This document shows, in pieces, positions 8,062 through 24,000 of a DNA stretch of 24,000 nucleotides (position 1 is its first letter; each line of letters opens with the position of its first letter). The position numbers were made by a program, and so were the translations under genes. The notes below the pieces were generated by a model. The model did not search any database. It saw only the letters and a program-made list of their open reading frames with translations, and was not told the origin of the DNA. Source of the stretch: Candidatus Limiplasma sp. (GTDB lineage Bacteria; Bacillota; Clostridia; Christensenellales; Aristaeellaceae). The DNA lies in NCBI GenBank assembly GCA_963675655.1, contig OY776489.1, positions 2,967,501 through 2,991,500 of the forward strand, given 5' to 3'.

Positions 8062-8079
8062 ATCGCCTTCCAAGATCGT

Positions 8080-8120: not shown

Positions 8121-8131
8121 ACTGCGTCTGC

Positions 8132-8254
8132 TTACTTGTTGCGCAGAGACGCGGGCTCCTGCGGCTGGTAGAAGAACCAGTAGCAGGCAGAGGAAGCGAC
8201 CAGCGCCGCAACAACGGTGCTGACAGCGGCGATAACGCCATAGAACTTCTTCAT
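8132..8254 (-). CDS. agrD: AgrD-type cyclic (thio)lactone autoinducing peptide precursor, 40 aa
   Basis: Too short for the ORF track; translated by hand codon by codon: MKKFYGVIAAVSTVVAALVASSACYWFFYQPQEPASLRNK*. The ATG overlaps the agrB stop (ATGA), and GGAAGGAGG lies 7 nt upstream. It has an amphipathic leader, a single Cys, a hydrophobic 5-residue CYWFF segment and a Pro/Glu-rich tail, which is the clostridial AgrD layout. Confidence 0.85.
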   Translation of the reverse strand: MKKFYGVIAAVSTVVAALVASSACYWFFYQPQEPASLRNK

Positions 8255-8898
8255 AGATGTGCCTCCTTCCTGAAGAATTTAGGTAAATCATTCAGCTTAT
8301 TGAGCAGAATGGCACCCAACGGTGTGAGCGTAAGGGATTGCCAAGCCGTACCCAATAAAAGGCTGGTCCCATAAGAATGAAATGCCGGGTACCGGCTTGC
8401 AAAATAGTAGAAAACAAGCTGCAAGGCAAAATACACAGACACAATAATTGTACTGCCTTTGCGCATGCGCTTGATTTTGTCTTTATTGGTTATCGGTTTA
8501 TTCGGTGAATCAATTGGTACATAGCGATAAATGATCCAGTACGTAAGCATATAGCAAATGATCATCACAATGAGTACAAGAACAGGATCGATAATCGTAG
8601 CTAATATACGCGATGCTAACGCCGCAACTGTACAGTAAATAACGCTGACCACTGTACAGAAATCAGCATCATATGCGTGTGCGCCTCCGCTGTATTTTCG
8701 AAAGATGCTAACCGCAAAACATACGATCATTGCTTCTACAGGCGCACCGACAATAAAACCAAAAATCAATGCAAGTATAATGGTAATTCCTATTTGGACA
8801 ATTGCCAATAAACCATAAGCTACAACCGCTTCGCGTTCCTCATCATATCCTAGAGAAACAGCAATTTTATTGGCCAGCCTCCTTACCATTTTCTCCAC
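8251..8898 (-). CDS. agrB: AgrB-family membrane endopeptidase (AgrD processing and cyclisation)
   Basis: 215-aa polytopic ORF with the AgrB signature FRKYSGGAHAYDADFCTVVS (conserved GG-H...C catalytic His/Cys pair). It sits immediately upstream of, and translationally coupled to, agrD. Confidence 0.85.
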   Translation of the reverse strand: MEKMVRRLANKIAVSLGYDEEREAVVAYGLLAIVQIGITIILALIFGFIVGAPVEAMIVCFAVSIFRKYSGGAHAYDADFCTVVSVIYCTVAALASRILATIIDPVLVLIVMIICYMLTYWIIYRYVPIDSPNKPITNKDKIKRMRKGSTIIVSVYFALQLVFYYFASRYPAFHSYGTSLLLGTAWQSLTLTPLGAILLNKLNDLPKFFRKEAHL

Positions 8899-9391
8899 TT
8901 TTTTCTACCTTCTTTTTATTGATTGCTTTAGAAATATAATATCCTGAGACTACAAAAATAGCCAAGAATATCGTTGAGGGTATCGCATAGAGGGCTTGTT
9001 CAAGCGGTTTTGCTGACTTGACAAGTAAATATGCCTGCTCCTTACCATACATCACATTAAGCAGTAAGGAATTAAGTATTTCTGAGACAGAATTAAATAC
9101 AAGAATGATAACTGCAGCAATTACCTCTCGAGGCATTTTTGATAATTCAATATGGTACATTCTTTGAAAACTGAATATCATCACAAATAATGATAAAACA
9201 GTATTAATCCCAAGCGTGATGGGTAAAAAACGGATTAAATATGTAATGACGATATAAAGTGAGCTGAGTAATAAATACTTTTTCTTGTCAACAGGGATCC
9301 CCACCAGAATATGCATAGCCCACGCTATTAAAAAACCTTCCGGAATACCCTTGAGTAAAAACATATGTAGAGTAACCGCAATGCTGTTCAT
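8867..9391 (-). CDS. Small polytopic membrane protein of unknown function (about 5 TM helices, Lys-rich C-terminal tail)
   Basis: 174-aa ORF with an ATG start and AGGAGG 8 nt upstream. Its 3' end overlaps the agrB start by 32 nt. I recognise no catalytic motif. Confidence 0.65.
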   Translation of the reverse strand: MNSIAVTLHMFLLKGIPEGFLIAWAMHILVGIPVDKKKYLLLSSLYIVITYLIRFLPITLGINTVLSLFVMIFSFQRMYHIELSKMPREVIAAVIILVFNSVSEILNSLLLNVMYGKEQAYLLVKSAKPLEQALYAIPSTIFLAIFVVSGYYISKAINKKKVEKSGENGKEAGQ

Positions 9392-9411
9392 CGTGCTTTC
9401 CTCCTAAAATA

Positions 9412-9969
9412 TTATTGCTTTTGTCGGTCCGTAAAACGTAAATTTACCGCACGAATCATTGAGTAAAGCATAATACATACGAACAAGTGTATTAGTACAT
9501 CCCCCGCACTCAGAATACAGTAGCCATAGTCGATAAAATCTGTTAAGAATTTCAGCTTGGTTTCCGGTCCGCCTAAAGTGTGCATCGTGTCTGCTGTGGA
9601 AACCATCTCCGGCGTAACATACCCTGTCAGATAAGATAGTGATGGGAAAACAGGCATTTGTCCATTGTTTTGCGCAATGGCCAGCTTGTTGAGCAATGTA
9701 CCGGCGCCAATACATACAGAACCTGCAATCGCTGGTTTATACAATTTAAAAACAAATATTGCAAATAAAAATGAAAGTATAACAGCAGGTTCGGTGTACG
9801 GTACCAGTTGCACAAACATATAATTCCTAAGAAAAATACTTGCCTGAAAAACGACCAGCACGCACTGCATGATTAACACCGGATAAAAGGTCCATGTTTT
9901 GAAGAGATATTTCAGTTTGTAATGCTTTAACTTTGCGATTATGCATACCAGAATGATTTCGACAACCAT
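9412..9969 (-). CDS. Polytopic membrane protein, DUF5317-like
   Basis: I place the start at the ATG at 9969 (AGGAGG 8 nt upstream) rather than the track's GTG at 9978. Blocks ...LLNKLAIAQNNGQMPVFP... and ...TKLKFLTDFIDYGYCILSAGDVLIHL... match my recollection of the DUF5317 family. The family assignment is from memory and is not verified. Confidence 0.6.
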   Translation of the reverse strand: MVVEIILVCIIAKLKHYKLKYLFKTWTFYPVLIMQCVLVVFQASIFLRNYMFVQLVPYTEPAVILSFLFAIFVFKLYKPAIAGSVCIGAGTLLNKLAIAQNNGQMPVFPSLSYLTGYVTPEMVSTADTMHTLGGPETKLKFLTDFIDYGYCILSAGDVLIHLFVCIMLYSMIRAVNLRFTDRQKQ

Positions 9970-10128
9970 GGTATGCACCTCCTGCCTGCGTGTTTTACGT
10001 CAACAAATCTAGCATACCAAATACATTCTGAAAAAACAACCTGTATATCCGGTATGTTTTCATGCCATTTTGATGTGTATTAATAGAACACATTTCTGAT
10101 AATGAATTATTCAGTGACTTTAGGTATT

Positions 10129-10137
10129 ATTATACCA
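10129..10137 (-). promoter_or_regulatory. Extended -10 element (TGGTATAAT), a candidate promoter for the agr-type operon
   Basis: The minus strand reads ...GGGATAATATGGTATAATAATACC..., about 160 nt upstream of the first gene, with no good -35. A second, weaker candidate (TTGTTT-17 nt-TGgTATGCT) lies nearer, at about 10008-10039. Confidence 0.35.
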
Positions 10138-10208
10138 TATTATCCCGATTATAATGTTGTATTATTTGATTTGGTTCAAATGCGAACCATGCGTATGTTA
10201 TAAAAACA

Positions 10209-10244
10209 GAAAAAATCCATCATACCAAATTATGATATGATGGA
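10209..10244 (-). terminator. Rho-independent terminator ending the polysaccharide operon
   Basis: The minus strand reads TCCATCATA-TCATAATTTGG-TATGATGGA (9-bp perfect stem, 10216-10244) followed directly by TTTTTTCTGTTTTT. It lies 32 nt after the stop at 10276. Confidence 0.85.
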
Positions 10245-10275
10245 AAACTGTAAATGTGCTGTTATTTGTATAACA

Positions 10276-12543
10276 TCATTTTAACACGCTACCCAATGCT
10301 GCGAATTGATAAGGATCGTCCTGATACTTCCTCTCCATTTCGCTCAGGTAGATATCCAATGCAGCTGCTGTATAGATGCTATTATCAGACATGTGCATAA
10401 CCAGTACTGCACCGCTCTTTGTATACTTTTTCAGGTTGCTTGCCAGTTTATCTGCGCTGGAGGCTTTATAATCCTGACTTGAATAACTGCCGGATACTGA
10501 GAACAGATAGCCACAATCAAACACCTTTGTTAAGCCGCTTTTACTTACAGCCAGCGTTGGCGGGCGGAACAAACGTACCAATGCAGGTTGTCCACCCACG
10601 GATACATCCCCGATAATGGCTTGAAGTGCGTCGTAGGAGTTAATCAATTCGCCTTCCAGCTCATCCAATTGTTCGTTGCTAAGTTCTGTAAACTTCTTTC
10701 CTGTGCCGACGTCGTTTGAAAGCTGGAAATGCGAATACGTATGGCTTGCTACATTGTGCCCCGCAATCGCAATGGAACGCAGCAAATTTGGATTATACTG
10801 CACATTCTTTGCCACGACAAAGAATGTGGCCTTAGCGTTATGAGCTTTCAATACATCCAGTATCTTTGTGATGGTTTCATCCGTTCCCCAGTCATCAAAG
10901 GTTAAAAAGACCATATTCTGATCGTTGGGTACAAGCCCGGTTTTATCCAGGCGCTTAATCTCATCCTTCGTAAACCCCGGCAGGAAATTGGACGAACTGA
11001 CCCAATCTACGCCGATATAGCGTGTTGCAATCGCCGTCATCACATCGCCGGTAAGCTGCCCCGGATATATTTTATCCTTTACCGCAGAGAGAATAGAACT
11101 ATCCGCCAAAGGGTACTGATACGTATATTCACTGTTGTTAGCAATCGCCGTAAGGGATTTCAGGCTATAGATATTACGGTTTTTCGCAATCAGACCGATC
11201 AGTTCACCTAGCAACTGATTGCTTTTTTGGTACTGGTTCATCTGAAAATGAATGATTTCGCCCCGCTGTAACATACCTTGATTTTCCGGCAGCAGGTCTT
11301 CCAGTATCGCTTCCGCATCCGTTGCGCGAATATCATTGGTACGTACGGCGTTTACCATCGAGGATGCAAGCATATAACCGCCTGCACCGCAAGCGCGTTT
11401 GAGCAAACTGTTCGCGTTGCCATACACAGGCCGTACCGCCATATCATCCGTGTAAGTATATAAAGTACGTATAGTTTCTTCGGTTTTCATGATCTGCAGC
11501 AGCATTGCCTCGGCATTTGAATAAAGAGAAGGCTGTATAGCGATACCCAGACTTTGTCCCGCGTCTAAAATCTGCTGTATTTCATCTGTATAGCGGGTTG
11601 CTTCATCCAACGTAACAAAGAAGGTTCCGGTACCTTTTACGGTTTTTAATGTTTGCAAAACACCGCTTAACTCCGCTTGATTGCCAAGTCCGGAAAAGGT
11701 GAACGCAACGGCTCTTTCTGTTGTGTACACCCTTATCATCGCATCAGCTGAATCATCGTTTTCCTGCAAAAGTGCTTCAGAACTCGCGCCTAAATCGGTT
11801 GAGGCTAATGCAGAACATATTGCAGAAACCGCTGTGGATGCGCCGGCTTCTTTTGCAGTAAGCTCTACACAGAGAATAGAACCTCTAACTAGGCCATCCA
11901 CAGTTTTTTTAGCTATTGTACTTGTTGGAATATCGGCAAGCGTAATGGTTTTTGTCGGTACAACCACCGTATCCATAGAGCTGGCGTATGCAGCGGCTAA
12001 AAGCTCGTCATTTGCCGATTGCGGTGATAAGACCTGCGAAGGCCATAGCCCCACCTCGTTTTGTATTGTACCGCCTGAGCGGACAAAATCAGACACAATG
12101 CTCTCGACCGATGCGGATGTTACCGTAGATCCGTTTCCTTCGTACACAACGCCGACTACATAACCGGCATTGGCAATCATCCCAAGGCTCTCCTTATACT
12201 CGGATGCATCTTGCCCAGAGATGAAGAAAGAGGCGATAACATCGTTGCTTTCCATGGCATTGATCAGATTTTGTGTGGTTTGGGAATCGCTTAAACCTTT
12301 AAAAACCAGTTCAACCTTTTGCGACGTATCGTCACTTGCGGTTGTTCTTAGTAAAGCGATATCATCCTCGCCACGGTTTTGGTAATTCGTGACCGCTTCA
12401 TTGATGCGAATAATGGTTTGCTCTGATTGAGAAACGGGTACGATCGCACGCTGATCATCCGATCGGTACATTTTTACCGCTAAAAAGCAGCCGGCGATTA
12501 CCAGGAGAAAGAATACGGTATGCCGTAATTGTTTTTTCCACAT
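10276..12543 (-). CDS. Secreted or lipid-anchored triple NodB-module protein; only the C-terminal CE4 polysaccharide deacetylase domain is intact (paralog B)
   Basis: The start is taken at the ATG at 12543 (MWKKQLRHTVFFLLVIAGC...), which aligns with the paralog's N-terminus and has AGGAGG 13 nt upstream. There is a possible lipobox, IAGC. The C-terminal CE4 motifs are intact: LTFDDWG (10888-10902), SHTYSH (10729-10743), LFRPP and LVMHMSD. Two upstream NodB-like modules have VFKGL and TFSGL in place of TFDDG and lack the His-His motif. Confidence 0.85.
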   Translation of the reverse strand: MWKKQLRHTVFFLLVIAGCFLAVKMYRSDDQRAIVPVSQSEQTIIRINEAVTNYQNRGEDDIALLRTTASDDTSQKVELVFKGLSDSQTTQNLINAMESNDVIASFFISGQDASEYKESLGMIANAGYVVGVVYEGNGSTVTSASVESIVSDFVRSGGTIQNEVGLWPSQVLSPQSANDELLAAAYASSMDTVVVPTKTITLADIPTSTIAKKTVDGLVRGSILCVELTAKEAGASTAVSAICSALASTDLGASSEALLQENDDSADAMIRVYTTERAVAFTFSGLGNQAELSGVLQTLKTVKGTGTFFVTLDEATRYTDEIQQILDAGQSLGIAIQPSLYSNAEAMLLQIMKTEETIRTLYTYTDDMAVRPVYGNANSLLKRACGAGGYMLASSMVNAVRTNDIRATDAEAILEDLLPENQGMLQRGEIIHFQMNQYQKSNQLLGELIGLIAKNRNIYSLKSLTAIANNSEYTYQYPLADSSILSAVKDKIYPGQLTGDVMTAIATRYIGVDWVSSSNFLPGFTKDEIKRLDKTGLVPNDQNMVFLTFDDWGTDETITKILDVLKAHNAKATFFVVAKNVQYNPNLLRSIAIAGHNVASHTYSHFQLSNDVGTGKKFTELSNEQLDELEGELINSYDALQAIIGDVSVGGQPALVRLFRPPTLAVSKSGLTKVFDCGYLFSVSGSYSSQDYKASSADKLASNLKKYTKSGAVLVMHMSDNSIYTAAALDIYLSEMERKYQDDPYQFAALGSVLK

Positions 12544-12676
12544 GGTGCAATTCATTCCTCCTGTTTTCATATGAAATGCGTCGTTATAGACTTTACATGG
12601 TGTTGATTTAATAAAGCGTAATGGGAAAAGCATGGTTGAGTAGGATCACTATTAGTATAGCTGTTTTTACCAGAAA

Positions 12677-14953
12677 CTACAACGCATCATTCAAGCCAAT
12701 AAACTGATAAGGCTCTTCAGCGTTTTCCGCTTCCATCACCGTCAGGTATAAATCCAGCGCTTCTGCGGTATACTGACTGGTGTCCGACATATGCATTAAA
12801 AGAATCGCGCCGCTTTTTGTATTCTTCTCCAAACTGGCGGCTAATTTCTCTGCGCTGACAGCATCATAGTCGTGGCTGGAATAGCTACCGGATATGGAGA
12901 AAGTAAAACCACAATCCAACACCGCTTCTATCCCTCTTTTACTTACCGCTAAAGTCGGCGGCCGAAACAACAGAGATAGCGATGGTTTATCCCCAGACTT
13001 TACATCACCGACAATATGCTGTAATACATTATAAGATGTCGTCAATTCCGCCTGCAATTCCGTCACCTGCTGCGAGGTTAAATCAGTATACTTTAGCTTG
13101 CTACTCTTTGTGTCCACATTTGCCAATGGTGTATGTAAATGGGAATGGCATCCTATTGTATGGCCCTCAACTGCAATGGCACGAAGTAAGTTGGGATTAT
13201 ACTTCACTTTCCCGGTAAGGATAAAGAAGGTTGCTTTTGCGTGATGCGCCTTAAGCACATCCAGTATAGCCGTTATCGTTTGGTCTGTGCCCCAGTCGTC
13301 AAACGTAAGAAATACCCTGTTAAAATTATTCACGATGAGTCCCGTTTTATCAAGCCGTTTAATCTCATCCTTGGTAAAACCGGGTAAATACTGCGAAACC
13401 GATACCCAATCCGTGCCAATGTATCTTAACTCAATCGAAAGCTCGGTATCACCGGTCATTTGCCCTGGATAGATTTTATCCAATACTTCGGGCAGAATAT
13501 CGCTGTCTGCGAGGGGATACTGATATACGTAATCCGTGTTATTCACGATCGCCAAGATGGGCTTTATGCTATAAATATTCCGCTCTGTAGCAATGAGCAG
13601 TACCAATTGGCCAAGCAATTCATCACTTTTTTGATACTGATTCATGAGGAAATGGACAATTTCTCCTCGCTGCAACACACCGGCGGCTTTTGGAAGAATA
13701 CTTTCGACAATCGCTTGAGCATCGGTAGCGCGGGTATCATCGCTACGTACTGCATTTACCATAGCAGAAACCAGCGTGAAGCCTCCTGCACCACAGGCTT
13801 GCTTAAGCATCTGGGTAGCATAGCCGTAAATCGTACGCACAGGCAACGCATCTGTATAGTGAAAAATGCAAGACAGGTTTTCCTGTATGCTTAGCATTTC
13901 TTCCAGCAGCGTAGCGGCATCTTTGCTTTCTGTGGTTTGTACTGCAATCCCCAAACTATGCCCATACAACAATACTTGTGATATTTCTTCCGGGTGATGG
14001 TTAATGTCATCCTGCGATACAAAGAACGTCGCTTTCCCGCTCACTGCATCCAATGCTTCTAAAACGCTTTGCAATTCAGCATCATTGCCCAAACCATAAA
14101 AGGTAAATGCTACTGCCCGTTCTGTGGTATATACCTGCGTAATCGGCTCATTTGCCTGTGTCTCTCTTGCTAATAGTTCTTTGGTATAAGCCTGCAGATC
14201 TGTATTCGCCAGTGTCAGGCAGAAAGCGGAAAAACCGTTTGTATTCCAGTTGGCATCTGTCTGGTTAGGCAACTCGATACATACAATTTCTTCGCGTTTC
14301 AGGGCCGCAACTTGCGTTTCTGCATCCTTTTGGGTGTCTATTGCATCCAATTGCAGCGTTGTACTTGGTATAACAATCGTATCCATATTGCAGGCAAACG
14401 CGATTGTTGCCAATGCTGTATCTTTAGTTGACTGTGCCATGATTTTTGCAGGCCAAATGCCGGTTAGCTGCTGTATTTGCTCTCCGGTCTGCACCAGCTG
14501 GGTAATCAGGCCCTCAGCTGTTTCATCATCCGTCACCGTACCTTGATCGATCGCAATGCCGATAGAATACCCAGATTCTACAATTTGCGATAAACTTGCG
14601 GGATATGCCTCAACATCACTCGCCGATACAAAAAAAGATGCGGTTAAACCATTTTGCGCAATGATGCTTAACATACTTCGCGTCGTGCGAATATCGCTTA
14701 ATCCCCGCATGACGATTTCGGCTTTCTCGCGGATGTTCTCTCCGGCTTTTTTCCGTAATATTGCCGTATCGCCAATACCATGCTGATGATATCGCTCAAT
14801 CGCCGTGCTAATTTGCTCGGTCAGCTGTTGCTCCGGTGAAGGTGTCGCCTCAGTATCGCGCTGCTCTGATGGGAACACTTCCGCCGCATATAAGCTGCCC
14901 GCAATCGCCAGCATCACGATAACAGCGAAAATAAGCTGCTTTTTCCACGCCAA
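12677..14953 (-). CDS. Secreted triple NodB-module protein; only the C-terminal CE4 polysaccharide deacetylase domain is intact (paralog A)
   Basis: 758-aa ORF with a TTG start and AAGGGAG 7 nt upstream, one nt after the preceding stop. It has an N-terminal signal/anchor. The C-terminal domain has LTFDDWG (13292-13306), CHSHLH, LFRPP and LLMHMSD. The two upstream modules are degenerate (IVMRGL, FTFYGL). By eye it is about 55-70% identical to the 10276-12543 product. Confidence 0.85.
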   Translation of the reverse strand: MAWKKQLIFAVIVMLAIAGSLYAAEVFPSEQRDTEATPSPEQQLTEQISTAIERYHQHGIGDTAILRKKAGENIREKAEIVMRGLSDIRTTRSMLSIIAQNGLTASFFVSASDVEAYPASLSQIVESGYSIGIAIDQGTVTDDETAEGLITQLVQTGEQIQQLTGIWPAKIMAQSTKDTALATIAFACNMDTIVIPSTTLQLDAIDTQKDAETQVAALKREEIVCIELPNQTDANWNTNGFSAFCLTLANTDLQAYTKELLARETQANEPITQVYTTERAVAFTFYGLGNDAELQSVLEALDAVSGKATFFVSQDDINHHPEEISQVLLYGHSLGIAVQTTESKDAATLLEEMLSIQENLSCIFHYTDALPVRTIYGYATQMLKQACGAGGFTLVSAMVNAVRSDDTRATDAQAIVESILPKAAGVLQRGEIVHFLMNQYQKSDELLGQLVLLIATERNIYSIKPILAIVNNTDYVYQYPLADSDILPEVLDKIYPGQMTGDTELSIELRYIGTDWVSVSQYLPGFTKDEIKRLDKTGLIVNNFNRVFLTFDDWGTDQTITAILDVLKAHHAKATFFILTGKVKYNPNLLRAIAVEGHTIGCHSHLHTPLANVDTKSSKLKYTDLTSQQVTELQAELTTSYNVLQHIVGDVKSGDKPSLSLLFRPPTLAVSKRGIEAVLDCGFTFSISGSYSSHDYDAVSAEKLAASLEKNTKSGAILLMHMSDTSQYTAEALDLYLTVMEAENAEEPYQFIGLNDAL

Positions 14954-14954
14954 G

Positions 14955-15980
14955 TTAATATTCTCCCTTTATATCAGGCGTAATAAGCTCACTTTTCCAG
15001 TCGTTTACATCGTTGCCGCCCAATCTGAAGAAATCAAACGAAGAAAAACCGTTTTGCACGCACGTGTCGCGCCATATCGCGAGCGTTTCCGCATCTGCAT
15101 ACCAAACTTCGTGCGTTTCCCCATCAAAATCATAAATTGCGCACAACGCGCCGCTGTCGGCATCCCGTATGGGCATTGCATCTGCTTCGCACAGGTTCTC
15201 TTCGGCTTGCTGCTGTGTTAGCGAAGTGATCTCATCCCCGTGCCAATCAAATCCCCCGGTTGCAAACGCCATACTTACATTGGGCAAAAGCGACTGGTAA
15301 TAAGCACAGGTCTCATCTAAAAAGGCAATGTCAGCTTTGGGCCCCGGGCCGCTGTGATACCCAAACAGGTTATAACACATTACACTGTATTCCGGTCCCT
15401 GCGGTAAATCAACATAGTTAGGAGCATTCCACGGCAGTACAATACGTAATTGAATACCATCGCGCTCGCAAACTGACCATGCCTGTTGAATAAAGGTTGC
15501 GTATTGTTGCCAAAGTTCCGTATCTGTGCGTATATTCTCATAATCCAGTTCAATCCCAGTAAGACTATATCGATCAATCAGGCTTATGAGTGCTTCCAGA
15601 TGTAACGCCATAGATTCTTCATCTGCAAAGAGACGGCGAAGCAAGTCGGCATTTTTATTATCATAAACGTTGGTCTCGATTTCGATATCATTTACCACAG
15701 ATAGGTAAACATCCGTACCGGTATCCATGCAGTCTTTTTGAAGCGCGCGCAGCATGGTTTCGGTTTCATCCAGCATCAACAAATCGTCATTCGCATCGAA
15801 GATACACGCAAAAGCGATCACTTTATCCAGCTTATCCGTAAGTGAATTCAATTCCAGTATAGAATCGTCATACTCCCAATAAGGCATCCATGCGCCGTAT
15901 TGATAATTCTCCGCTATTGCGCCGGAGTACACCCCCGCCAGCAGTATAAGAACTGCAAATAGGCAAAGTTTCTTCTTCAC
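14955..15980 (-). CDS. Secreted GH18-like (chitinase-fold) glycoside hydrolase
   Basis: GTG start with AAGGAGG 7 nt upstream. The signal peptide is MKKKLCLFAVLILLAGVYSGAIA. LTGIELDYE aligns with the GH18 DGxDxDxE block and retains the D-x-E catalytic pair. The overall pattern resembles YaaH/YdhD-type GH18 proteins. Confidence 0.65.
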   Translation of the reverse strand: MKKKLCLFAVLILLAGVYSGAIAENYQYGAWMPYWEYDDSILELNSLTDKLDKVIAFACIFDANDDLLMLDETETMLRALQKDCMDTGTDVYLSVVNDIEIETNVYDNKNADLLRRLFADEESMALHLEALISLIDRYSLTGIELDYENIRTDTELWQQYATFIQQAWSVCERDGIQLRIVLPWNAPNYVDLPQGPEYSVMCYNLFGYHSGPGPKADIAFLDETCAYYQSLLPNVSMAFATGGFDWHGDEITSLTQQQAEENLCEADAMPIRDADSGALCAIYDFDGETHEVWYADAETLAIWRDTCVQNGFSSFDFFRLGGNDVNDWKSELITPDIKGEY

Positions 15981-16063
15981 GCATGATCCTCCTTGGACGT
16001 GTATATTTCGCCATCACAAGACTATTGGTTCAAACGCCATGCATATTGATCGTATAATGCAGA

Positions 16064-18007
16064 TTAGAAGTGATCCACAAAGAACTGGGTAATCGACTTA
16101 AACCAACCGGTAACAATGGAGTTGATCGTTCTTCTTTCTGCGAGGTTATAGGAGTATAACACTTTATTCGCATCCTGCGCGTCATAGATGACAATATCTT
16201 TAAAGACCGCATCGTAGACATCGTCGAAAATATAGCGCTGTGTATATTGCTCTTCCGTATTTTCATACACTTTCGCTGCCAGGGATATCGCACCTAACTG
16301 CGTACCGGATACCTTTAGCTGGCTTACGATTGGTTTATCATCGACCCATACACTCAATCGGCTGCCTACCAAACGAATCCGCAGTTTACGCTCTTCCCGT
16401 GTGGAAGTATCGTTAACCGGATAATATGGGGTTCCGCCATCCTCCAGTGTAAGTACAGGGGTTAAATACAATTCCTGCAACTTTCGCGTTGCTTCCGCGA
16501 TCCGCTGCGGATCAGTATCGTATTGAATGATGGCCTGCTGAAGCGCAATTAAACCATTATGCTCATCTTCCTGCGTAGAAATATAGGGACCGCCGTCAAA
16601 TTCAAACAGGTTTTGGAAGAACAACTGCTCTTCGTCGTCGCCGACATCCCAAATCTCAAAATTATTATCTTCCAGGCGAATTTCGATACCATGATCCCAT
16701 TCGCGATCCGTACGAAGGCATATACTTTGCCGACCAACTAGATTACCCCGTACATAAACTGTCATATCCAAATCGGAGAACAGCTGTGTATTCATTGTTA
16801 TCTGGCCACGTCCTGCCGGTTCGGAGGTGACAATGATTTGGTTTCCTTTATACTCTGCTACGCCTTCATCCGAATACCAATGCGAAGCTTCATCTTCATC
16901 ACCGGTTACAAATTGTAGGGTATCGCCCGTATCGTCCCATATCCGCATCAGCATATGATTGGTTGAAAAATAGCTTTGCACTTGCAAACGTGTAAGGTCA
17001 TAAATGGATGAATCCAGTGTGTTTAAACAGGATCCTTCTCGATTATAGTTCATAGTGTACAAGTTCGTAATCCATTTCCGGTTCGCCTCGCTGGCAATTG
17101 CATCCGTACCGAAAGCGCCGGTATTGGCGTGCATTAGCACATACATTTCAGGTACATAGCCAATGGCATTGGTATACTCGGTACTCATCCCTTCATAATC
17201 TGCTTGAATCCGTTTTTCCAGTTCTTCGACGCTTTCAACCCGCAGCCGATCCTCATCACGGATAAAATCCATCAAATAATGGTTGTAGTCGCGCCACAGG
17301 TATTGACGGACGTCCAGAAACTCTTTTGCGTTCAACTGATCAAAGAAGTTATTATAACGGTCAAACACATTGATATAGGACAGTCGATAACCATTGCTGC
17401 CGAGTTCCCAATATGCGTTATTAATCTGCGTCTTAATATCGTCGGCCGTTATGTAATCGCTCTCTTCATCATCCAGATTATCAGCATACGTACACTCGGT
17501 CGCGCTGTAACCATGTTTTTTCAGCGTGTCAATCGCATAATCGGTTGTTTTTTTAATGCCGTCTTCAAAAAAGAGGAAGAGCGATTTTTCCGGCAGTGTA
17601 CTGTACCGCAAGTAAAAATCAGCAATATCCTGTTGTGTAATCGTTACATAACCGGATGCATGCAAAGCTTCAATCTGTTCTTTAAATGTTTCCAGATTAA
17701 CAATTTTGCTTTCCAGGCTCGTAGACGTAGTTAATCCCGGATAAGATATGGCGATAAAGCGCCGGTCTGCTCCCGCGTCCGATTGTACGGAGGGGCCGTC
17801 GCTATTGAAACTGGTATTGCTTTTACTGGTAGGGCCGCCGCTTGCCGATGTTTGAATGGAATGTACAATAGAATAGACGCCAACACCAACCGCAACGACA
17901 ATTAAAACAATCTCAATAATAGATCGCAGTAATTTTTTGCGGTTCGAGCGCTGCAAGCGTGCCTTGGATGCTCTAAAATCTTTATTGGGGTCATTTGATT
18001 CGGTCAT
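16064..18007 (-). CDS. Single-pass membrane protein with a degenerate PgaB/IcaB-like NodB module and a C-terminal beta-sandwich (lectin/LamG-like) region
   Basis: 647-aa ORF with an ATG start and GGAAGGAG 9 nt upstream. A TM helix lies at about residues 28-50. LFLFFEDGIKKTTDYAIDTLKKHGYSATE aligns with the LTFDDG...ATFF block of CE4, but the His-His motif is absent (ELGSNGYRLSY). The beta-strand-rich C-terminal half has no motif I can name; calling it lectin-like is a guess. Confidence 0.6.
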   Translation of the reverse strand: MTESNDPNKDFRASKARLQRSNRKKLLRSIIEIVLIVVAVGVGVYSIVHSIQTSASGGPTSKSNTSFNSDGPSVQSDAGADRRFIAISYPGLTTSTSLESKIVNLETFKEQIEALHASGYVTITQQDIADFYLRYSTLPEKSLFLFFEDGIKKTTDYAIDTLKKHGYSATECTYADNLDDEESDYITADDIKTQINNAYWELGSNGYRLSYINVFDRYNNFFDQLNAKEFLDVRQYLWRDYNHYLMDFIRDEDRLRVESVEELEKRIQADYEGMSTEYTNAIGYVPEMYVLMHANTGAFGTDAIASEANRKWITNLYTMNYNREGSCLNTLDSSIYDLTRLQVQSYFSTNHMLMRIWDDTGDTLQFVTGDEDEASHWYSDEGVAEYKGNQIIVTSEPAGRGQITMNTQLFSDLDMTVYVRGNLVGRQSICLRTDREWDHGIEIRLEDNNFEIWDVGDDEEQLFFQNLFEFDGGPYISTQEDEHNGLIALQQAIIQYDTDPQRIAEATRKLQELYLTPVLTLEDGGTPYYPVNDTSTREERKLRIRLVGSRLSVWVDDKPIVSQLKVSGTQLGAISLAAKVYENTEEQYTQRYIFDDVYDAVFKDIVIYDAQDANKVLYSYNLAERRTINSIVTGWFKSITQFFVDHF

Positions 18008-18124
18008 CTGTATCTGCTTCTCCTTCCGGATGGCAATGATTGGTCTTTATCAGTTCGGTTGATACTAAGTATAGGCAAGTATAATCTGTATGCAGTAATC
18101 CTGCTTTACCATAACGATTAACCA

Positions 18125-19909
18125 TTATGTTCCGCTGGCAGTCTTTTGTTTTTTCTTTTTCTTCTTGTTGCCGCGTGTACCCCAATCCGATACCCAGAAG
18201 GTGAACCAGGCATACGGCATTTGCCATAGTAAGATGGCTTCATAGTAGATTACAAACCATAAACCATAAATCCAAAGATTGCTCTTTTTGAGTCGAAGCT
18301 GTGCCAGGCTCATCAGCATGGCCATCATCAAGATACCCAACAAGAATGTCGTTGGGAAGATATGCTTTGTTATTGGAACGATGATCAGGTTGTACACCAT
18401 AATTAACGGCGCAATCAACGGTATTAATAGCCCCATATAAAACGACATAGACATCAACGGTTCTTTACGCCACATAAAAGAGCCGGCTTTCAGGCTTTCA
18501 CGCAGCCAAGAACGCTTCCAACGCATCTGCTGCTTCAAAAATACCTTTTGGCTCTTGGGAACCAGCGTAGAACAGATAGCCGTATCCTGATAGGATGTAC
18601 GGTAGTTTTTCACAACAAAGTTCGTCAAGCTGCGGTCATCACCAAAGGTTGCTTTCCGTCCAAGGAAGGTTTGGTTAACCCAGGGCTCCAATACTTCTTT
18701 TACGGCAGACAGCCGATAGCAGGACAGCGGACCGGACAGGCAGGTAACAGCATTGAAATAGGCTTCTGCTGCTTTAATAATACGGAAACTGATGTAATAA
18801 CGTACGCATTGCATCTTTGTCAGGTGGTTAGTATACGTGTTTACAACGTCTGTACGGCCGGATACACCACCCATTTTTGGATCAAACATCGGTTGTACGA
18901 GGTTGCGAATGGCATCCGGCTCCAAAAAGCTATCTGAATCCACAAAACCAATTAATTCCGTAGTTGCGTTTTTAATACCGAGTGCCATCGCCTCGCGTTT
19001 GCCCTGATTATGCTTTTGAATGAAGACGCGAATTCTGTTTTTAGTTTGGAATCGTTCATCCAAATTCCACAGCTTTGTTATGGTATCTTTTATCACTTCC
19101 ACTGAACGATCCGAAGAGCCGTCGTCTACAACAATGATCTCAAGCTTATCCAGAGGATAATCCTGATCGATACAGCTCATAATCGTACGGGCGATATATT
19201 CCTCTTCGTTAAAGCAGGGAATAACAATGGTAATGGATGGCGTATAGTTTGGATCCACCGGCACAGGTTTATACATGGAACCAAATAAATAACGCGATAA
19301 CAGGAACGATGCCGTCGCGATGGAGTATGCGTATAAAATGCTGTTTTGGTTGAAGTACATTACACTTTCCGTGCGCATCAGTACAATAACCAAGGTAACT
19401 AAAAACAAGAAGAAGATGGATATCGAAGAAAGCGCCGTATCTTTCTTTCTGCGGCGGGATATATACAACGGTTGATCAAACTGTACGGCAAAACTCTGTT
19501 TCTCAGGTGAATAGCGGACTACTTTACCTTTCACACGGTAATGATCTTCCGTACCTTCGTGCAATACGCCCGGTAAAAGCGAAAAGTCCAGCGTAAGGGA
19601 CTCGTCCATTTCTAATGCTTTGGCAAGTGCTGTTCGCGGCAACTTCATCTGTATGCCGGTTTGGGAAATATCCATACAGCGTGCAGGAAAACGCCGCCGC
19701 CCGTTTGAAGTAACAAGCACTTTAAAATTGGCAAAATAACGCTGCCCCGCATAATTTGCATACTGCGGTTTAGATTTATCCTGATGCAGATTATTACGCC
19801 GGTCCTCGGGCGCACGAATACTTGCCGGGTCGGGAACGTGAGACAGCAGCCTGCGATCCCGGCGCGGTTGAAGCATTACGTCTGTAAGGGTTGAATATTT
19901 CTTAGCCAT
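18125..19909 (-). CDS. Processive family-2 glycosyltransferase (HAS/NodC/chitin-synthase-like) with an N-terminal PilZ-like domain
   Basis: 594-aa ORF. Residues about 55-150 follow the PilZ beta-barrel pattern, with DISQTG (the D/NxSxxG motif, 19655-19672). Two TM helices follow. The GT2 core has VIPCFNEE, VVDDGSSD, FVDSDS, GDDRSLTNF (18623-18643) and QQMRWKRSW (QxxRW, 18518-18532). It ends with three or more C-terminal TM helices and a Lys-rich tail. Confidence 0.85.
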   Translation of the reverse strand: MAKKYSTLTDVMLQPRRDRRLLSHVPDPASIRAPEDRRNNLHQDKSKPQYANYAGQRYFANFKVLVTSNGRRRFPARCMDISQTGIQMKLPRTALAKALEMDESLTLDFSLLPGVLHEGTEDHYRVKGKVVRYSPEKQSFAVQFDQPLYISRRRKKDTALSSISIFFLFLVTLVIVLMRTESVMYFNQNSILYAYSIATASFLLSRYLFGSMYKPVPVDPNYTPSITIVIPCFNEEEYIARTIMSCIDQDYPLDKLEIIVVDDGSSDRSVEVIKDTITKLWNLDERFQTKNRIRVFIQKHNQGKREAMALGIKNATTELIGFVDSDSFLEPDAIRNLVQPMFDPKMGGVSGRTDVVNTYTNHLTKMQCVRYYISFRIIKAAEAYFNAVTCLSGPLSCYRLSAVKEVLEPWVNQTFLGRKATFGDDRSLTNFVVKNYRTSYQDTAICSTLVPKSQKVFLKQQMRWKRSWLRESLKAGSFMWRKEPLMSMSFYMGLLIPLIAPLIMVYNLIIVPITKHIFPTTFLLGILMMAMLMSLAQLRLKKSNLWIYGLWFVIYYEAILLWQMPYAWFTFWVSDWGTRGNKKKKKKQKTASGT

Positions 19910-19940
19910 GACTTAAAACCTCTTCGCTCGTTGCGTGCGG

Positions 19941-21611
19941 TCAGTTGGTAACATAGTTACGAATAAAATCAATCCACTTCTCGCAACCTTCGTCACTGAT
20001 ATGAAACCCATATGTTTCCGTATCCAAACAAAAATTCTCCGTTAGATCTCCTTTTGCATTTCGTAGCGGATACGCAACGTCTAAAAATGGAATGTCATAC
20101 TGTAAACAGAATTTGTACATTGCAAGATTGTAGCTGAATATTTTGCCGTTGTTTGGTTTGGTATAGCGATCTTCAATACCGGGCGGAACAGACTCCAGCC
20201 AAATGGTGATATCCGGGTTCGCCTGGCGAATTTCATAAACCAACAGCTTGAGATTGTCAATAAACTGCTCTGGTGAATAGCCGCTTATATCCGTTTGCCC
20301 CGGCATAATAATTGCATTCTTCGCGCCAAGCTGCTTCAGCCCTTGCGCAACTGTTACGCTTTCCCCATTAATTGTCGGATGTTCGACGTTGCTGTTTACC
20401 GGCAGCAAAGACAGCCCAATACTGAAGTTATTGGTAGTCAGGAATTGCGTATCTCCCAGATATTCCGGCTGTGTTAAACGGCGCCACTCTACATAATCCT
20501 GCAAGCCCATGGTAATCGAATCGCCGATAAACACGACATTTTGCGCTAGCTTTCCATCTACGACGGCTGTTTCGTCTGCTGTTGCTTCGGGGTCTGCGGT
20601 TACTTGCGGTTGTTTGGGTATATTCATCAAGGCACTGTCTGTAACCGGAAGGGTATAGTTATCCGCATCCAGCATCGCCAGTGTATCAGCATCCAGTTCG
20701 GCAGGATTGTCAAACATGGTAATATGTTCCCGTTGTAAACGCTGCGGCGTAACAATGGTGTAATCCATCTCGTCCAGTGCCTGCAGCAGCCAGCCAACCA
20801 CATTGGTTACATTGGCGTATGTATTGGCAATGGTGTCTTCCATCCGGTCGGATAACATCGGCGGCGGGTCTATCGCACGGTTGTCCATAATGTCCTCAAT
20901 ACCTTGATATTCATCTGCATCCAGCGCCTGACCCAGTTTGATGGTAATAATAGACCCACGAACCAGTTTTTGTACCCAGGCCAGCGCATCTTCATACGTG
21001 CCAAAGCTTGCATGGTTTAAAAACACGTTTGGTTGAACGCCTGCCTCCAAGCCGGTATAAGATGCTGCCTGCATAACCTCTTGCGTATATTCGGTTCCGT
21101 TACAGCGGAACAGGGTTGGCAGCTTACCGATTGCCTTTGAAATCAGCTCCTGTCCACGTTGAAACTGGTGTATATTCGTTAGAACATCATTGTCCTGCAT
21201 ATCTTTTTCGCCGTTCAAGCCGTAATTGCCAACCGTAAAGCCCTGACTGGCAATCTGCTTAACCGTCTCAGCATGCTCATCCGCAACAATGCCACTGATA
21301 AAGAATATAGCAGTTGCATTTTCTCTTTTCATTTCACTTGCAACAGTCTGCACCGTGTTATCGTCAATATAGCCTTCCAATATAATGCTGACGACACGTT
21401 TGTTGGTGATTACGTTCCCATACAACACGGCAGGTTCGTTTACCAGTGTTGGCGCTGGCGTCAGCGAAGCGTGAATCAGCTCCGGTGTAGCCGATTGGCT
21501 TATGGTATATCCTTGTTCCTGTGTACATCCGCTCAGAAACAACATACTGCCGCAAAGAAGAACCAGTATTAAATAGCGAAAGATTTTCAATGAAAATATC
21601 CGTTTCTTCAT
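19941..21611 (-). CDS. Lipoprotein fusing a degenerate NodB-like module to a C-terminal SGNH/GDSL hydrolase domain
   Basis: Signal peptide with lipobox LFLSGC. The N-terminal module VVSIILEGY...ATAIFFISG...GFTVGNYGLNG has the NodB pattern without the catalytic Asp and His residues. The C-terminal part has VVFIGDSITMGL (SGNH block I with the nucleophile Ser) and ...YGFHISDEG (block V His). The start overlaps the upstream stop (ATGA). Confidence 0.7.
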   Translation of the reverse strand: MKKRIFSLKIFRYLILVLLCGSMLFLSGCTQEQGYTISQSATPELIHASLTPAPTLVNEPAVLYGNVITNKRVVSIILEGYIDDNTVQTVASEMKRENATAIFFISGIVADEHAETVKQIASQGFTVGNYGLNGEKDMQDNDVLTNIHQFQRGQELISKAIGKLPTLFRCNGTEYTQEVMQAASYTGLEAGVQPNVFLNHASFGTYEDALAWVQKLVRGSIITIKLGQALDADEYQGIEDIMDNRAIDPPPMLSDRMEDTIANTYANVTNVVGWLLQALDEMDYTIVTPQRLQREHITMFDNPAELDADTLAMLDADNYTLPVTDSALMNIPKQPQVTADPEATADETAVVDGKLAQNVVFIGDSITMGLQDYVEWRRLTQPEYLGDTQFLTTNNFSIGLSLLPVNSNVEHPTINGESVTVAQGLKQLGAKNAIIMPGQTDISGYSPEQFIDNLKLLVYEIRQANPDITIWLESVPPGIEDRYTKPNNGKIFSYNLAMYKFCLQYDIPFLDVAYPLRNAKGDLTENFCLDTETYGFHISDEGCEKWIDFIRNYVTN

Positions 21612-22318
21612 GACAATACTTCCCCCGACTCCTCATGGGTCGCAGAGGGGTCTGCAACGCGGTTCAGCGACATGTGCGAATTATCAATCTGTTGCAGCAC
21701 ATCGATAGAAGCGTCCAATTCTCTTTCCATACCGCGGAATTGCTCGGCAAGGTCTTTTTTAAACTGCAAAGCGCTGTAGTAAGCTGCTCGGCAAGCAGAA
21801 ACCAGTTGCCTGCGCTGTTCATTGGCCTGCTGCATCATCCGCTCACTGTCCATATTAGCCCGGGCAACAATTTGATCTGCCCGTTGCACAGCTTGCGCCA
21901 CTACATCTTCAGCACTCTGTTTTTCCAGATAAGCAATTTGCTCGTTCATATGGTCGATCCGGTTTTGCAGGCGTGCCACCTCTGCGTTCAGCTGAGTGAT
22001 ATGCTCGCTTTGCGCAGTATTTTCTCCGCTGGCTTGGGTAAGCTCATCACCAATCGCAGCTAGCTTATGCTGTTGATTGGTGATGATGCTTTCCTGCTGC
22101 TTTGTTTTTTCGCGCAGGGAAACAAGCATCGCTTCCTGGCTTTTATTTGTATTAAGCAGTTGCTGGTATTGCGTTTCTAACTTTAACTGCTTGCTACGTT
22201 CAATTTCTGCTTCATCCGCCAGATCGTTCAAGTGGCGGTCAACCTCGTCAACCAGATAATATTTTCGCCGCTTTACTGTAAATCCGTAATCTGCGTAATC
22301 ATCAATCGTCTTGTTCAT
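21608..22318 (-). CDS. DivIVA-domain coiled-coil protein
   Basis: The N-terminus ...YGFTVKRRKYYLVDEVDRHLNDLADE fits the DivIVA N-terminal pattern (F..x.RGY..xEVDxfLd). The remainder is a long Q/E/A-rich heptad-like coiled coil. Confidence 0.7.
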   Translation of the reverse strand: MNKTIDDYADYGFTVKRRKYYLVDEVDRHLNDLADEAEIERSKQLKLETQYQQLLNTNKSQEAMLVSLREKTKQQESIITNQQHKLAAIGDELTQASGENTAQSEHITQLNAEVARLQNRIDHMNEQIAYLEKQSAEDVVAQAVQRADQIVARANMDSERMMQQANEQRRQLVSACRAAYYSALQFKKDLAEQFRGMERELDASIDVLQQIDNSHMSLNRVADPSATHEESGEVLS

Positions 22319-22342
22319 CTGGTGGATCGCCTCCTTGTTTGA

Positions 22343-23401
22343 TTAGAATAGCTTAGGAAGTAAGCCAAATTTGTATAATGCATAAGCTACGGAAATAATA
22401 GCGGCAATCATTAATATGCCGTTTAGCAGCGTGAAGAGCAAAACGGGTTTCCCAGAGTCCTTCTGCTTCCACTGTGAGTTGGGAGCCTGGATATAATCGT
22501 CCCATCTTGAGGCGCGTTTTTCGCCAGCATTCTCGACCGTTTCGGTTGCAGATGATTTGTTGTTTTTATCCATGTCAGGCGTCCACATATCTGTTTCTTC
22601 CGGATTATAATCCACTTTGTCAACGGCAGTGTCTTCTGCACTGCGGACCGCCTGTTTTACCTGCTGTGTATACGTTGTGGGTACGAACTGCTGTATATTC
22701 TCTTTTGCTACGTCGGATGATACCGTTACGCTCTCCATAGAAGGTGACGGACCGGAAAATTGGATTGTTACCGTTGTTTGCGGCTGAACCGTTCCCGGTA
22801 CAGAAACTGGTTGTACCGGCACAGCTACCGTGTTGCGCTGTTCCTGTATAACCACAGTTTCTTCTGCCTTTGGCGCTTCCTGTATGGCAGATGCTACACT
22901 CTGCTGCTGCGGTACGTTTACCACTGTGTTATTTACAGGCTGTGGCGGCTGTGTATACACAGGCTGATTGATCTGCGTAGCCGCAACGGGAACAGACTGC
23001 TGCCGCGTTATCGGTTGCGCCTGCAACGGACTATTTTGCCTTGGCAAACGGTTGCCGGCAACAGAGGTTGCCACAGGCTGCGCTACTCGGCGTTTGCTTT
23101 CATAACCACCCGTTGTAACCTGCTGTTTTACTGTTTGTACTTGTGTGTTTTGTGTATGACTATTCAGCTGCGCAAATAGTAAATTTACTTGTGCCGCTAA
23201 ATACATATCGCAATTTTTTGATAGGGTTCTATTGTGCGAATGCTCTCCAATATTTGAAAATACCTGTGCAGCGATACGGTGCGCTTCATTTGGTGAGTTT
23301 GTCAACTCCAATGCAGTTGAATAGACAAACAAATAATGTTCTTTTCGAAAGCGCTCCAATGCTTCGGGTGTATCTATGTGTATCAACCCATCTCCATTCA
23401 T
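22343..23401 (-). CDS. Tail-anchored protein of unknown function: small helical N-terminal domain, Q/P/V-rich low-complexity linker, C-terminal TM helix
   Basis: 352-aa ORF with an ATG start and GGAAGGAAGGAGG upstream. The C-terminus LLFTLLNGILMIAAIISVAYALY is a single TM helix. The N-terminal roughly 80 aa vaguely resemble a sigma-70 region-2-like helical bundle, but that resemblance is weak. Confidence 0.6.
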   Translation of the reverse strand: MNGDGLIHIDTPEALERFRKEHYLFVYSTALELTNSPNEAHRIAAQVFSNIGEHSHNRTLSKNCDMYLAAQVNLLFAQLNSHTQNTQVQTVKQQVTTGGYESKRRVAQPVATSVAGNRLPRQNSPLQAQPITRQQSVPVAATQINQPVYTQPPQPVNNTVVNVPQQQSVASAIQEAPKAEETVVIQEQRNTVAVPVQPVSVPGTVQPQTTVTIQFSGPSPSMESVTVSSDVAKENIQQFVPTTYTQQVKQAVRSAEDTAVDKVDYNPEETDMWTPDMDKNNKSSATETVENAGEKRASRWDDYIQAPNSQWKQKDSGKPVLLFTLLNGILMIAAIISVAYALYKFGLLPKLF

Positions 23402-23745
23402 GGGCTGTCCTCCTTCCTTCCCGGTGCCTGCTACTACAAATTGCTGCTTTGGGAAACAATGTTTTCCCGCCTACGCTTACACTTTTTGCATAACATTATT
23501 TACTCTGCAAAAAGTATAAAACTCCCGGTATCTCTTACGTGACAGAAGGAAAAGTTATGGCCGAACAACCTACCTGTTTATAAGCGAATAAACCCCCGCT
23601 GATAATGCCATATACATATACTCGGTGCGCTTCGTTCATTGATTGCAACAGACTGTATCCATATACAACCAAATCATTATAAACCGAATTGTCTGGCCTT
23701 TCGCCTCCTATACCGGCACGCTGATAAGCCTTGTTCTTCAATTTG

Positions 23746-23775
23746 TATTATAGTTCAAACAATGGTACTTTGACA
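23746..23775 (-). promoter_or_regulatory. Sigma-A promoter candidate (TTGTCA-18 nt-TATAAT) for the polysaccharide operon
   Basis: The minus strand reads TTGTCAAAGTACCATTGTTTGAACTATAAT. The -35 is at 23775-23770 and the -10 at 23751-23746. This implies a leader of about 340 nt before the ATG at 23401. Confidence 0.55.
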
Positions 23776-23915
23776 AGGGTTTCCATGCTATAAGCCCTCT
23801 CTGTAGCGATAAAACTGGTTATTTTTGAGTTCTATCTCAACATATTGTAGTGTTATCTTCCAGAAAATCAATAGATTTATCAAATAGTTACTTTCTAAGA
23901 TTCTCTGCTTCAGCA

Positions 23916-23951
23916 TTACATGAACAGTTGATAATCATCATGTTCATGTAA
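23916..23951. repeat. Perfect 11-bp inverted repeat TTACATGAACA-14 nt-TGTTCATGTAA
   Basis: Read directly from the sequence. It lies between the window's right edge and the polysaccharide operon promoter, and could be a terminator stem for an off-window upstream gene or a palindromic operator. Confidence 0.6.
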
Positions 23952-24000
23952 CGTTGATTGGCTTCGGGGTGTATAGTATTTCGCCGTCTATGCGCAATCC

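Follow-up and report, generated by a model that had tools for sequence, protein, structure and literature searches.

The making of polymeric chitin or chitosan is seen as a property of eukaryotes; among bacteria, enzymes of the type involved are familiar chiefly as producers of Nod-factor oligomers and hyaluronan capsules. Here, we describe a locus of eight co-oriented genes, numbered 1 to 8 in the order in which they are read, on the reverse strand of a 24,000-nucleotide stretch of DNA from Candidatus Limiplasma sp. (contig OY776489.1, positions 2,967,501 to 2,991,500; hereafter the window, in whose own numbering all coordinates are given). At its center lies a processive membrane synthase of glycosyltransferase family 2 (GT2) with an N-terminal PilZ domain (gene 4), accompanied by a single-pass membrane protein (gene 5), a secreted hydrolase with the fold of glycoside hydrolase family 18 (GH18; gene 6), and two proteins with carbohydrate esterase family 4 (CE4) deacetylase domains (genes 7 and 8). 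Our comparisons indicate that this is a real, widespread, and uncharacterized variant of synthase-dependent exopolysaccharide system, the chemistry of whose product is predicted rather than proven. The original prediction made from this DNA had read the locus as machinery for a secreted, partly de-N-acetylated, N-acetylglucosamine (GlcNAc)-based polymer resembling chitin or chitosan, a reading to which we give about an even chance. The operon logic appears to parallel that of BcsA-BcsB-BcsZ and PgaC-PgaB, and the chemistry would parallel that of NodC-NodB and of fungal chitin synthase with chitin deacetylase.

In rhizobia, NodC and NodB likewise pair a GT2 of the NodC/hyaluronan synthase (HAS) type with CE4 de-N-acetylation of a β-1,4-GlcNAc chain. 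The operon here, however, has no NodA acyltransferase, its synthase has PilZ at the N terminus and, toward the C terminus, a membrane region like that of HAS, it adds the GH18 hydrolase, gene 5, and multidomain CE4 proteins, and a polymer rather than a pentamer would be expected of it. The class I HAS enzymes (Streptococcus HasA and those of Chlorella virus and vertebrates) are the best solved relatives of gene 4 and share its DSD, GDDR, QQxRW, and WGTR motifs as well as its membrane architecture, but the operon has no UDP-glucose dehydrogenase (in related operons a TviB-like UDP-HexNAc 6-dehydrogenase is found in its stead), and to our knowledge HAS systems have no PilZ domain, CE4 deacetylases, or GH18 partner. 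Fungal chitin synthases that act together with chitin deacetylases, as in yeast spore walls and Cryptococcus walls, show the expected order of events, namely a chitin-synthase-type GT2 followed by CE4 action outside the membrane, yet they are distant in sequence, and the locus here is a bacterial operon with PilZ and other accessory proteins.

The poly-N-acetylglucosamine (PNAG) systems pgaABCD and icaADBC also make a GlcNAc polymer by a synthase-dependent route, with partial CE4 de-N-acetylation, a PgaB-fold protein, and a cognate hydrolase. They differ from the present locus in GT2 subgroup, in having PgaA and IcaC, and in having PgaD or IcaD, for which no similar open reading frame (ORF) was found in the operon; here, moreover, the PgaB-like domain of gene 5 is degenerate and the hydrolase is a GH18. 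The Escherichia coli PNAG system is controlled by cyclic di-GMP (c-di-GMP), which in the operon here would act through the fused PilZ domain. Cellulose synthesis by BcsA-BcsB with BcsZ and the clostridial ccsABZHI system (PMC7710045) have in common with this locus a PilZ-gated GT2, an adjoining extracytoplasmic binding partner, and a cognate hydrolase. In gene 4, however, PilZ is found at the N terminus instead of the C terminus and has a noncanonical arginine motif, gene 5 is unrelated to BcsB, deacetylases are present, and an amino-sugar polymer would be expected. The Streptomyces tip glycan synthase CslA-GlxA (10.1101/2023.11.20.567928), likewise with a GT2, is unlike the locus in that CslA is cellulose-synthase-like and no copper oxidase is present here; a DivIVA match in gene 2 falls below the cutoff. 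Full-text literature searches found no description of this gene set. Genes 4, 5, and 6 are not named by any curated NCBIfam model, and no curated family covers the system as a whole, in agreement with the initial remark that the gene set was not recognized as a described system.

Family calls were based on Pfam gathering scores and NCBIfam equivalog cutoffs, and folds on AlphaFold (AF2) models compared by Foldseek. Gene 4 (18125 to 19909, reverse strand; 594 amino acids) matched Glycos_transf_2 (115 bits) and Chitin_synth_2 (PF03142; 99.4 bits against a cutoff of 27). Its best NCBIfam equivalog was NodC (TIGR04242), matched from model position 41 to 394 of 395 with 197.3 bits, below the cutoff of 550. 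The score against PgaC/IcaA (TIGR03937) was lower still (128.4 bits, cutoff 422.3), with a match ending at model position 335 of 407, and that against the BcsA/CelA model (TIGR03030) was 49.7 bits against a cutoff of 699.1. The best matches among PDB sequences were hyaluronan synthases (5e-36), with the chitin synthase Chs1 far behind (6e-4). In 16 close homologs, D324-S-D326, G423-D-D-R426, Q460-Q-M-R-W464, and W576-G-T-R579 were invariant, and these align to the HAS motifs. On the strength of the NodC, HAS, and Chitin_synth_2 matches and of the GDDR, QQxRW, and WGTR motifs, gene 4 is assigned by sequence to the HAS/NodC/chitin-synthase type of GT2 rather than to PgaC/IcaA or BcsA, so that two claims of the original prediction stood: a PilZ-GT2 synthase of the HAS/NodC type, and a system distinct from the PNAG and cellulose ones. 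A cellulose or mixed-linkage-glucan synthase, such as BcsA/CcsA or the Romboutsia GT2-PilZ protein, was also considered and was ruled out by the family scores together with WGTR and GDDR. Source annotations of the homologs read “glycosyltransferase,” “hyaluronan synthase” (assigned automatically at JGI), or “hypothetical protein.”

Residues 57 to 146 of gene 4 matched PilZ (PF07238) with 30.5 bits against a gathering score of 22.5; compared with PDB sequences, this domain gave no significant match. Of its motif D80-I-S-Q-T-G85, the residues S82, Q83, T84, and G85 were invariant in the 16 close homologs, and in an alignment of 74 synthases (that of the window plus those of 73 other loci) the Ser and Gly of D-[IV]-S-x-T-G were kept in at least 90% and the Asp in 60 to 90%. 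A conserved, canonical RxxxR was seen in neither set; in its stead, there are two invariant DRR motifs (residues 18 to 20 and 36 to 38) and R32, 40 to 60 residues before DxSxxG. The PilZ match, the intact DxSxxG, and a gene for a GGDEF/HD-GYP protein 2 kb downstream make control of gene 4 by c-di-GMP plausible, although the noncanonical arginine motif leaves such control unproven.

Loci of this kind are numerous. A profile search with gene 4 across GTDB representatives, one genome per species, identified at least 560 loci with a synthase of the same type, many from human and animal guts and others from the environment, the nearest of which is also from Candidatus Limiplasma (97% identity). They were distributed over Christensenellales, Oscillospirales, Clostridium sensu stricto, Lachnospiraceae, Eubacteriaceae, Erysipelotrichales, and Negativicutes. 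Conservation was counted in the best 80 of these loci (individual ones are labeled L003, L004, and so on), with denominators that vary from gene to gene. Gene 5 lay directly after the synthase in 69/71 loci, the GH18 gene followed in 63/66, and a multi-CE4 protein was encoded in 47/51. Loci of the Christensenellales kind have the multi-CE4 gene downstream, whereas it lies upstream in those of Clostridium and others. The order of the core genes and the association of the synthase with GH18 and CE4 proteins, as originally proposed, are conserved in other genomes. One Bacillota metagenome-assembled genome (L053) carried two complete modules in tandem (7330 to 14572 and 15016 to 21720 of that locus), each made up of a gene-3-like gene, a CE4 gene, the synthase, gene 5, and gene 6.

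Gene 5 (16064 to 18007, reverse strand; 647 amino acids) belongs to a family of approximately 2,000 sequence clusters, nearly all named hypothetical and with no precomputed Pfam domain among the matches listed. Its AF2 model (pLDDT 84) consists of an N-terminal transmembrane helix and two domains. The first had the deacetylase fold of the PgaB N terminus, PplD, IcaB, and BpsB (6e-12 to PgaB), and the second was a CBM66-like β-sandwich (3e-8). Against the PgaB sequence model, gene 5 scored 27.6 bits (cutoff 321.9). It keeps FEDG, but both metal-binding His residues are replaced (N205 and L209), and HxxxH was found at this place in only 1 of 66 homologs.

Gene 6 (14955 to 15980, reverse strand; 341 amino acids) has a predicted signal peptide and scored 25.7 bits against Pfam GH18 (PF00704), below the gathering score of 29.6, although some of its homologs carry a precomputed match. 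Its AF2 model (pLDDT 90) was closest to SleL (5.7e-20, TM-score 0.72), to a Chromobacterium chitinase, and to class V chitinases; the match to chitinase 5jh8 had a TM-score of 0.75. Within E144-x-D146-Y-E148, which holds the catalytic DxE of the GH18 motif DxxDxDxE, the acidic residues and the tyrosine were invariant, and [DE]xDxE was present in 56/56 homologs. GH18 enzymes use the N-acetyl group of the substrate and cleave β-1,4 bonds after GlcNAc. The modeled (β/α)8 fold identifies gene 6 as a GH18-fold hydrolase in spite of the subthreshold Pfam score; the earlier “GH18-like” label is borne out by the fold and the intact ExDxE, if not by the sequence score.

Three Polysacc_deac_1 stretches were recognized by Pfam in gene 7 (12677 to 14953, reverse strand), and its paralog gene 8 (10276 to 12633 for the longest ORF, reverse strand) has the same three-domain layout; both proteins are membrane anchored. 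Only the third, C-terminal domain of each has the full set of catalytic motifs: TFDD550, HSHLH603, RPP664, and LLMH718 in gene 7 and TFDD578, HTYSH631, RPP690, and LVMH744 in gene 8, the active domain of the latter being closest to peptidoglycan-GlcNAc and chitin deacetylases. The operon thus holds eight CE4-like domains, of which two are intact by motif; the other six (those of genes 3 and 5 and the first two in each of genes 7 and 8) have other residues in place of the Asp-Asp pair and the two His. Exactly one full CE4 motif set was found in 65/68 homologs. The description of genes 7 and 8 as triple-NodB proteins with intact CE4 domains therefore applies to one domain of each, the other two being degenerate, and the NodB-like domains that had been read in genes 3 and 5 have lost these catalytic residues. 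The tandem paralogs 7 and 8 are approximately 65% identical in DNA (by cross-matches to L003), and most relatives have a single such gene. In L003, the closest related genome, the gene 8 ortholog (17337 to 19629) is split over several frames, possibly as a pseudogene or through long-read assembly errors, and gene 7 is intact.

Gene 3 (19941 to 21611, reverse strand) encodes a lipoprotein (lipobox LSGC) with a CE4-like and an SGNH/GDSL domain (Polysacc_deac_1, 44.9 bits; Lipase_GDSL_2, 47.9 bits). The former retains no catalytic motif at all. A comparison of 27 homologs showed the Gly and Asp of the GDS motif of the latter in at least 90% of them and its catalytic Ser in 60 to 90%.

The linkage of such a synthase with a GH18 hydrolase, CE4 deacetylases, and a carbohydrate-binding partner points to a secreted β-1,4-linked GlcNAc polymer that is de-N-acetylated in part once outside the cell. 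We infer that gene 4 would polymerize UDP-GlcNAc into the β-1,4 chain and thread it through its own transmembrane channel, with the N-terminal PilZ-like domain probably gating polymerization in response to c-di-GMP. Gene 5, with its inactive PgaB-like domain and a lectin-like β-sandwich on the outer side of the membrane, would most likely receive the nascent chain and pass it on, as BcsB does for BcsA. The intact CE4 domains of genes 7 and 8 may then strip the chain of some of its N-acetyl groups, which would render it cationic (chitosan-like), the degenerate CE4 domains of both proteins and that of the gene 3 lipoprotein probably serving as binding modules. Gene 6 would trim or release chains, a cognate-hydrolase role like that of BcsZ, PgaB-C, PelA, or CcsZ, and genes 1 and 2 would be lineage-specific cytoplasmic accessories that may position the machine.

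Several observations weigh against this picture. The product chemistry of the whole family stands as a prediction from sequence; the best single-sequence matches of gene 4 are to hyaluronan synthases, whose product is a heteropolymer; the nearest structure to the GH18 hydrolase, SleL, acts on peptidoglycan; and the PilZ domain has the noncanonical arginine pattern described above. Co-transcription is read from gene order, and in the region ranked for transcription signals (9000 to 24000, compared with shuffled sequence) the totals of promoter-like and terminator-like sites were no higher than in shuffles (28 versus 31.5 and 15 versus 14.4). A nucleotide-sugar dehydrogenase of approximately 440 amino acids was the fifth commonest gene family upon clustering of the ORFs; it occurs in 31/80 related loci, in 27 of them in the orientation of the synthase, and usually opens or closes the operon (at 459 to 1760 in L004, 5915 to 7237 in L078, 5634 to 6968 in L022, and 14730 to 16166 in L075, plus 27 other loci). 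Because this gene lies inside homologous operons, a pure chitin/chitosan product is not secure: the polymer may carry a uronic sugar, and the genome studied here might encode a UDP-HexNAc dehydrogenase outside the window.

The same machinery could on that account make an acidic, glycosaminoglycan-like polymer containing an N-acetyl-hexosaminuronic acid, for example with alternating or mixed GlcNAc and N-acetylglucosaminuronic acid (GlcNAcA), like hyaluronan with GlcNAcA in place of glucuronic acid and de-N-acetylated in part to a polyampholyte. The best equivalog of the dehydrogenase was TviB, a model for UDP-GlcNAc C6 dehydrogenase (428 to 443 bits), far ahead of the UDP-glucose dehydrogenase TuaD (120 to 145 bits); the TviB cutoff is 592, however, so that this substrate is a candidate rather than established. 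Dehydrogenase-positive loci were scattered through every clade of the synthase tree and included the sister lineage L004, whose synthase is 77% identical to gene 4 and whose similar operon, with a single multi-CE4 gene, has the dehydrogenase directly before a gene-1-like ORF. That the best solved relatives of the synthase are HAS enzymes also fits a heteropolymer. On the other hand, no dehydrogenase was found in the window or within 6 to 10 kb of the operon in L003, L005, L006, L007, and L013, among the 40 loci flanked on either side by at least 8 kb, 23 were without it, and we know of no HAS-type enzyme that uses UDP-GlcNAcA. We regard an acidic product, with the dehydrogenase encoded elsewhere in this genome, as less likely than a chain of GlcNAc alone but as a rival with an appreciable chance, and it bears on how the original prediction is to be read. 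The survey of Pfam matches and ORFs bore out that the window has no Wzx/Wzy, ABC exporter, or priming transferase, nor did it reveal a nucleotide-sugar gene; the conclusion once drawn from the latter, that the precursor is a common one, holds for the window but is called into question by the 31 operons with the dehydrogenase. UDP-glucose 6-dehydrogenase (HasB), likewise, was not found in the window, as had been stated, and the dehydrogenase of the related operons resembles TviB much more closely than it does that enzyme.

A divergent Gram-positive PNAG system, with β-1,6-linked GlcNAc and gene 5 as the PgaB/IcaB equivalent, would account for the PgaB/IcaB/BpsB fold of the first domain of gene 5 and for the 128-bit match of gene 4 to the PgaC/IcaA model. 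That score lies far below both its cutoff and the NodC score, and HAS, NodC, and chitin synthases are the group marked by the invariant WGTR and by a C-terminal membrane region like that of HAS; PgaD/IcaD is missing, gene 5 lacks the metal-binding His residues, and the cognate hydrolase is a GH18, whereas the PNAG hydrolases known to us are GH153 or GH20. A PNAG-type product is unlikely, and very improbable in our estimation, in view of the family scores, of WGTR, and of the GH18 partner. On its side, an operon survey (PMC7112194) reported PNAG-like operons and unusual two-domain PgaB proteins in Clostridia; these may be the loci described here, sighted earlier by computation. Alternatively, the enzymes might remodel peptidoglycan, spore wall, or septal wall, with the synthase making a wall-bound glycan or, like NodC, short chito-oligosaccharides. 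The closest structures to the GH18 protein are the spore cortex-lytic SleL and YdhD, the CE4 domains score best on the PdaB and PdaA sporulation models and on the peptidoglycan deacetylase PgdA, a DivIVA-like gene is present in the operon, and NodC, an oligomer maker, is the best equivalog match. Yet all of the sporulation-model scores are far below their cutoffs, the DivIVA match is subthreshold and confined to one lineage, and the hydrolase and deacetylases are tied to the synthase in nearly all loci, including those of Pseudoramibacter, Absicoccus, and Selenomonadaceae, which we take to be nonsporulating. Since the enzymes travel with the synthase even there, a role restricted to peptidoglycan or the spore wall is unlikely, and we would give it a small chance at best.

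Whether the polymer is a partly de-N-acetylated GlcNAc chain, as we prefer, or an acidic one, the broader proposition would be that many Clostridia and Negativicutes, gut Christensenellales among them, make true chitin/chitosan or a hitherto unknown GlcNAc/GlcNAcA glycosaminoglycan under the gating of an unusual N-terminal PilZ domain, a fifth major synthase-dependent exopolysaccharide system beside cellulose, PNAG, Pel, and alginate; we hold this tentatively, at somewhat less than even chances. If true, it would mean a new matrix or capsule polymer that could affect aggregation, recognition by host lectins and chitinases, and immune signaling. The system also offers a new PilZ variant, a new family of synthase partners (gene 5), and pseudo-deacetylase domains that are possible new modules for binding GlcNAc polymers. 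Cultured species of Clostridium (such as C. butyricum and C. sartagoforme), Pelosinus, and Pseudoramibacter carry the same core, so the finding is directly testable.

The eight genes most likely form one operon, judging from their layout, and a single transcript would be expected. From gene 1 to gene 7, the intergenic gaps are 24, -4, 31, 117, 83, and 1 nt, the negative value reflecting a 4-nt overlap of the gene 2 stop with the gene 3 start. Genes 7 and 8 lie 43 nt apart when the longest ORF is taken for gene 8 and 121 to 133 nt apart if its translation starts at M27 or M31 (12555 or 12543). Such a later start is likely, as an AGGAGG site precedes it and the protein then begins with the same MAWKKQL as its paralog gene 7; the spacing of 133 nt given in the original prediction is reasonable with the start at M31 (12543), and its other gaps were reproduced. 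Shine-Dalgarno-like sites precede all of the genes apart from gene 8 in its long form. None of the three larger intergenic gaps contained a promoter-like or a strong terminator-like site.

As first described, the eight reverse-strand ORFs are bracketed by a promoter candidate and a terminator candidate, each the top-ranked site of its kind in the region compared. The former (23747 to 23776, reverse strand) is of the sigma-70 type, TTGTCA-18 nt-TATAAT, matching the consensus, which is the only basis for the call, at 11 of 12 positions; the latter (10216 to 10244, reverse strand) is an intrinsic-terminator-like hairpin with a 12-bp stem and a 5-nt loop followed by TTTTTTCTGT (a T run). Given that sites of either kind are no commoner than in shuffled sequence, each is suggestive rather than proof. 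Independent support for the operon boundary comes from L003, with which DNA homology (83% overall) begins at approximately 23879, just upstream of the promoter candidate. The 5′ leader between promoter candidate and gene 1 (23402 to 23746, reverse strand; approximately 345 nt) is 76% identical to that of L003 and has a predicted 14-bp hairpin approximately 100 nt upstream of the start codon. Its folding z-score (-1.9) was only slightly better than shuffles. A riboswitch was considered for the leader and rejected: the whole window gave no Rfam match at gathering score, and the leader gave only a spurious snoRNA match (E = 4.7).

Genes 1 and 2 occur only in loci of the Christensenellales/Oscillospirales group. 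Gene 1 (22343 to 23401, reverse strand) encodes a tail-anchored protein in which a conserved N-terminal domain (approximately 80 amino acids) is followed by a Q/P-rich linker and a C-terminal transmembrane helix (residues 320 to 338), and it had no Pfam or NCBIfam match. The idea that its N-terminal domain is a sigma-70 region 2 was dropped, since no Pfam match appeared even at E = 10 in three homologs. Proteins of the same architecture (ORF clusters 8, 10, and 20) are encoded upstream of the synthase in loci of this group. Examples of such gene-1-like proteins are found at 6737 to 7573 in L007, 6912 to 7610 in L011, and 6956 to 7687 in L022; their sequences diverge quickly and fall in no Pfam family. 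Gene 2 (21608 to 22318, reverse strand) encodes a cytoplasmic coiled-coil protein whose family occurs in 15 related loci. It matched Pfam DivIVA (PF05103) with 26.0 bits against a gathering score of 28, its other matches being to generic coiled-coil families, so that of the “DivIVA-like” label the coiled coil and a weak similarity stand; the score is below the cutoff and was not rescued by fold. In Streptomyces, CslA interacts with the polarity protein DivIVA, a parallel to this gene.

Directly after the terminator candidate begins a second unit on the same strand (6373 to 9978), which is syntenic with L003 and consists of genes for a DUF5317 membrane protein (9412 to 9978), a 174-amino-acid membrane protein of no family (8867 to 9391), an AgrB homolog (8251 to 8898), and, as a separate unit from the operon, the membrane GGDEF and HD-GYP protein (6373 to 8241; Pfam GGDEF, 145 bits; HD_5, 133 bits). 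The last may supply or remove the c-di-GMP to which the PilZ synthase would respond, a link that we infer. Neither an AgrD-like peptide gene nor AgrC/A is evident in the unit. The first approximately 60 residues of the longest GGDEF/HD-GYP ORF abound in Ser, Pro, Arg, and Leu and look unlike protein, and the true start of this gene is probably further downstream.

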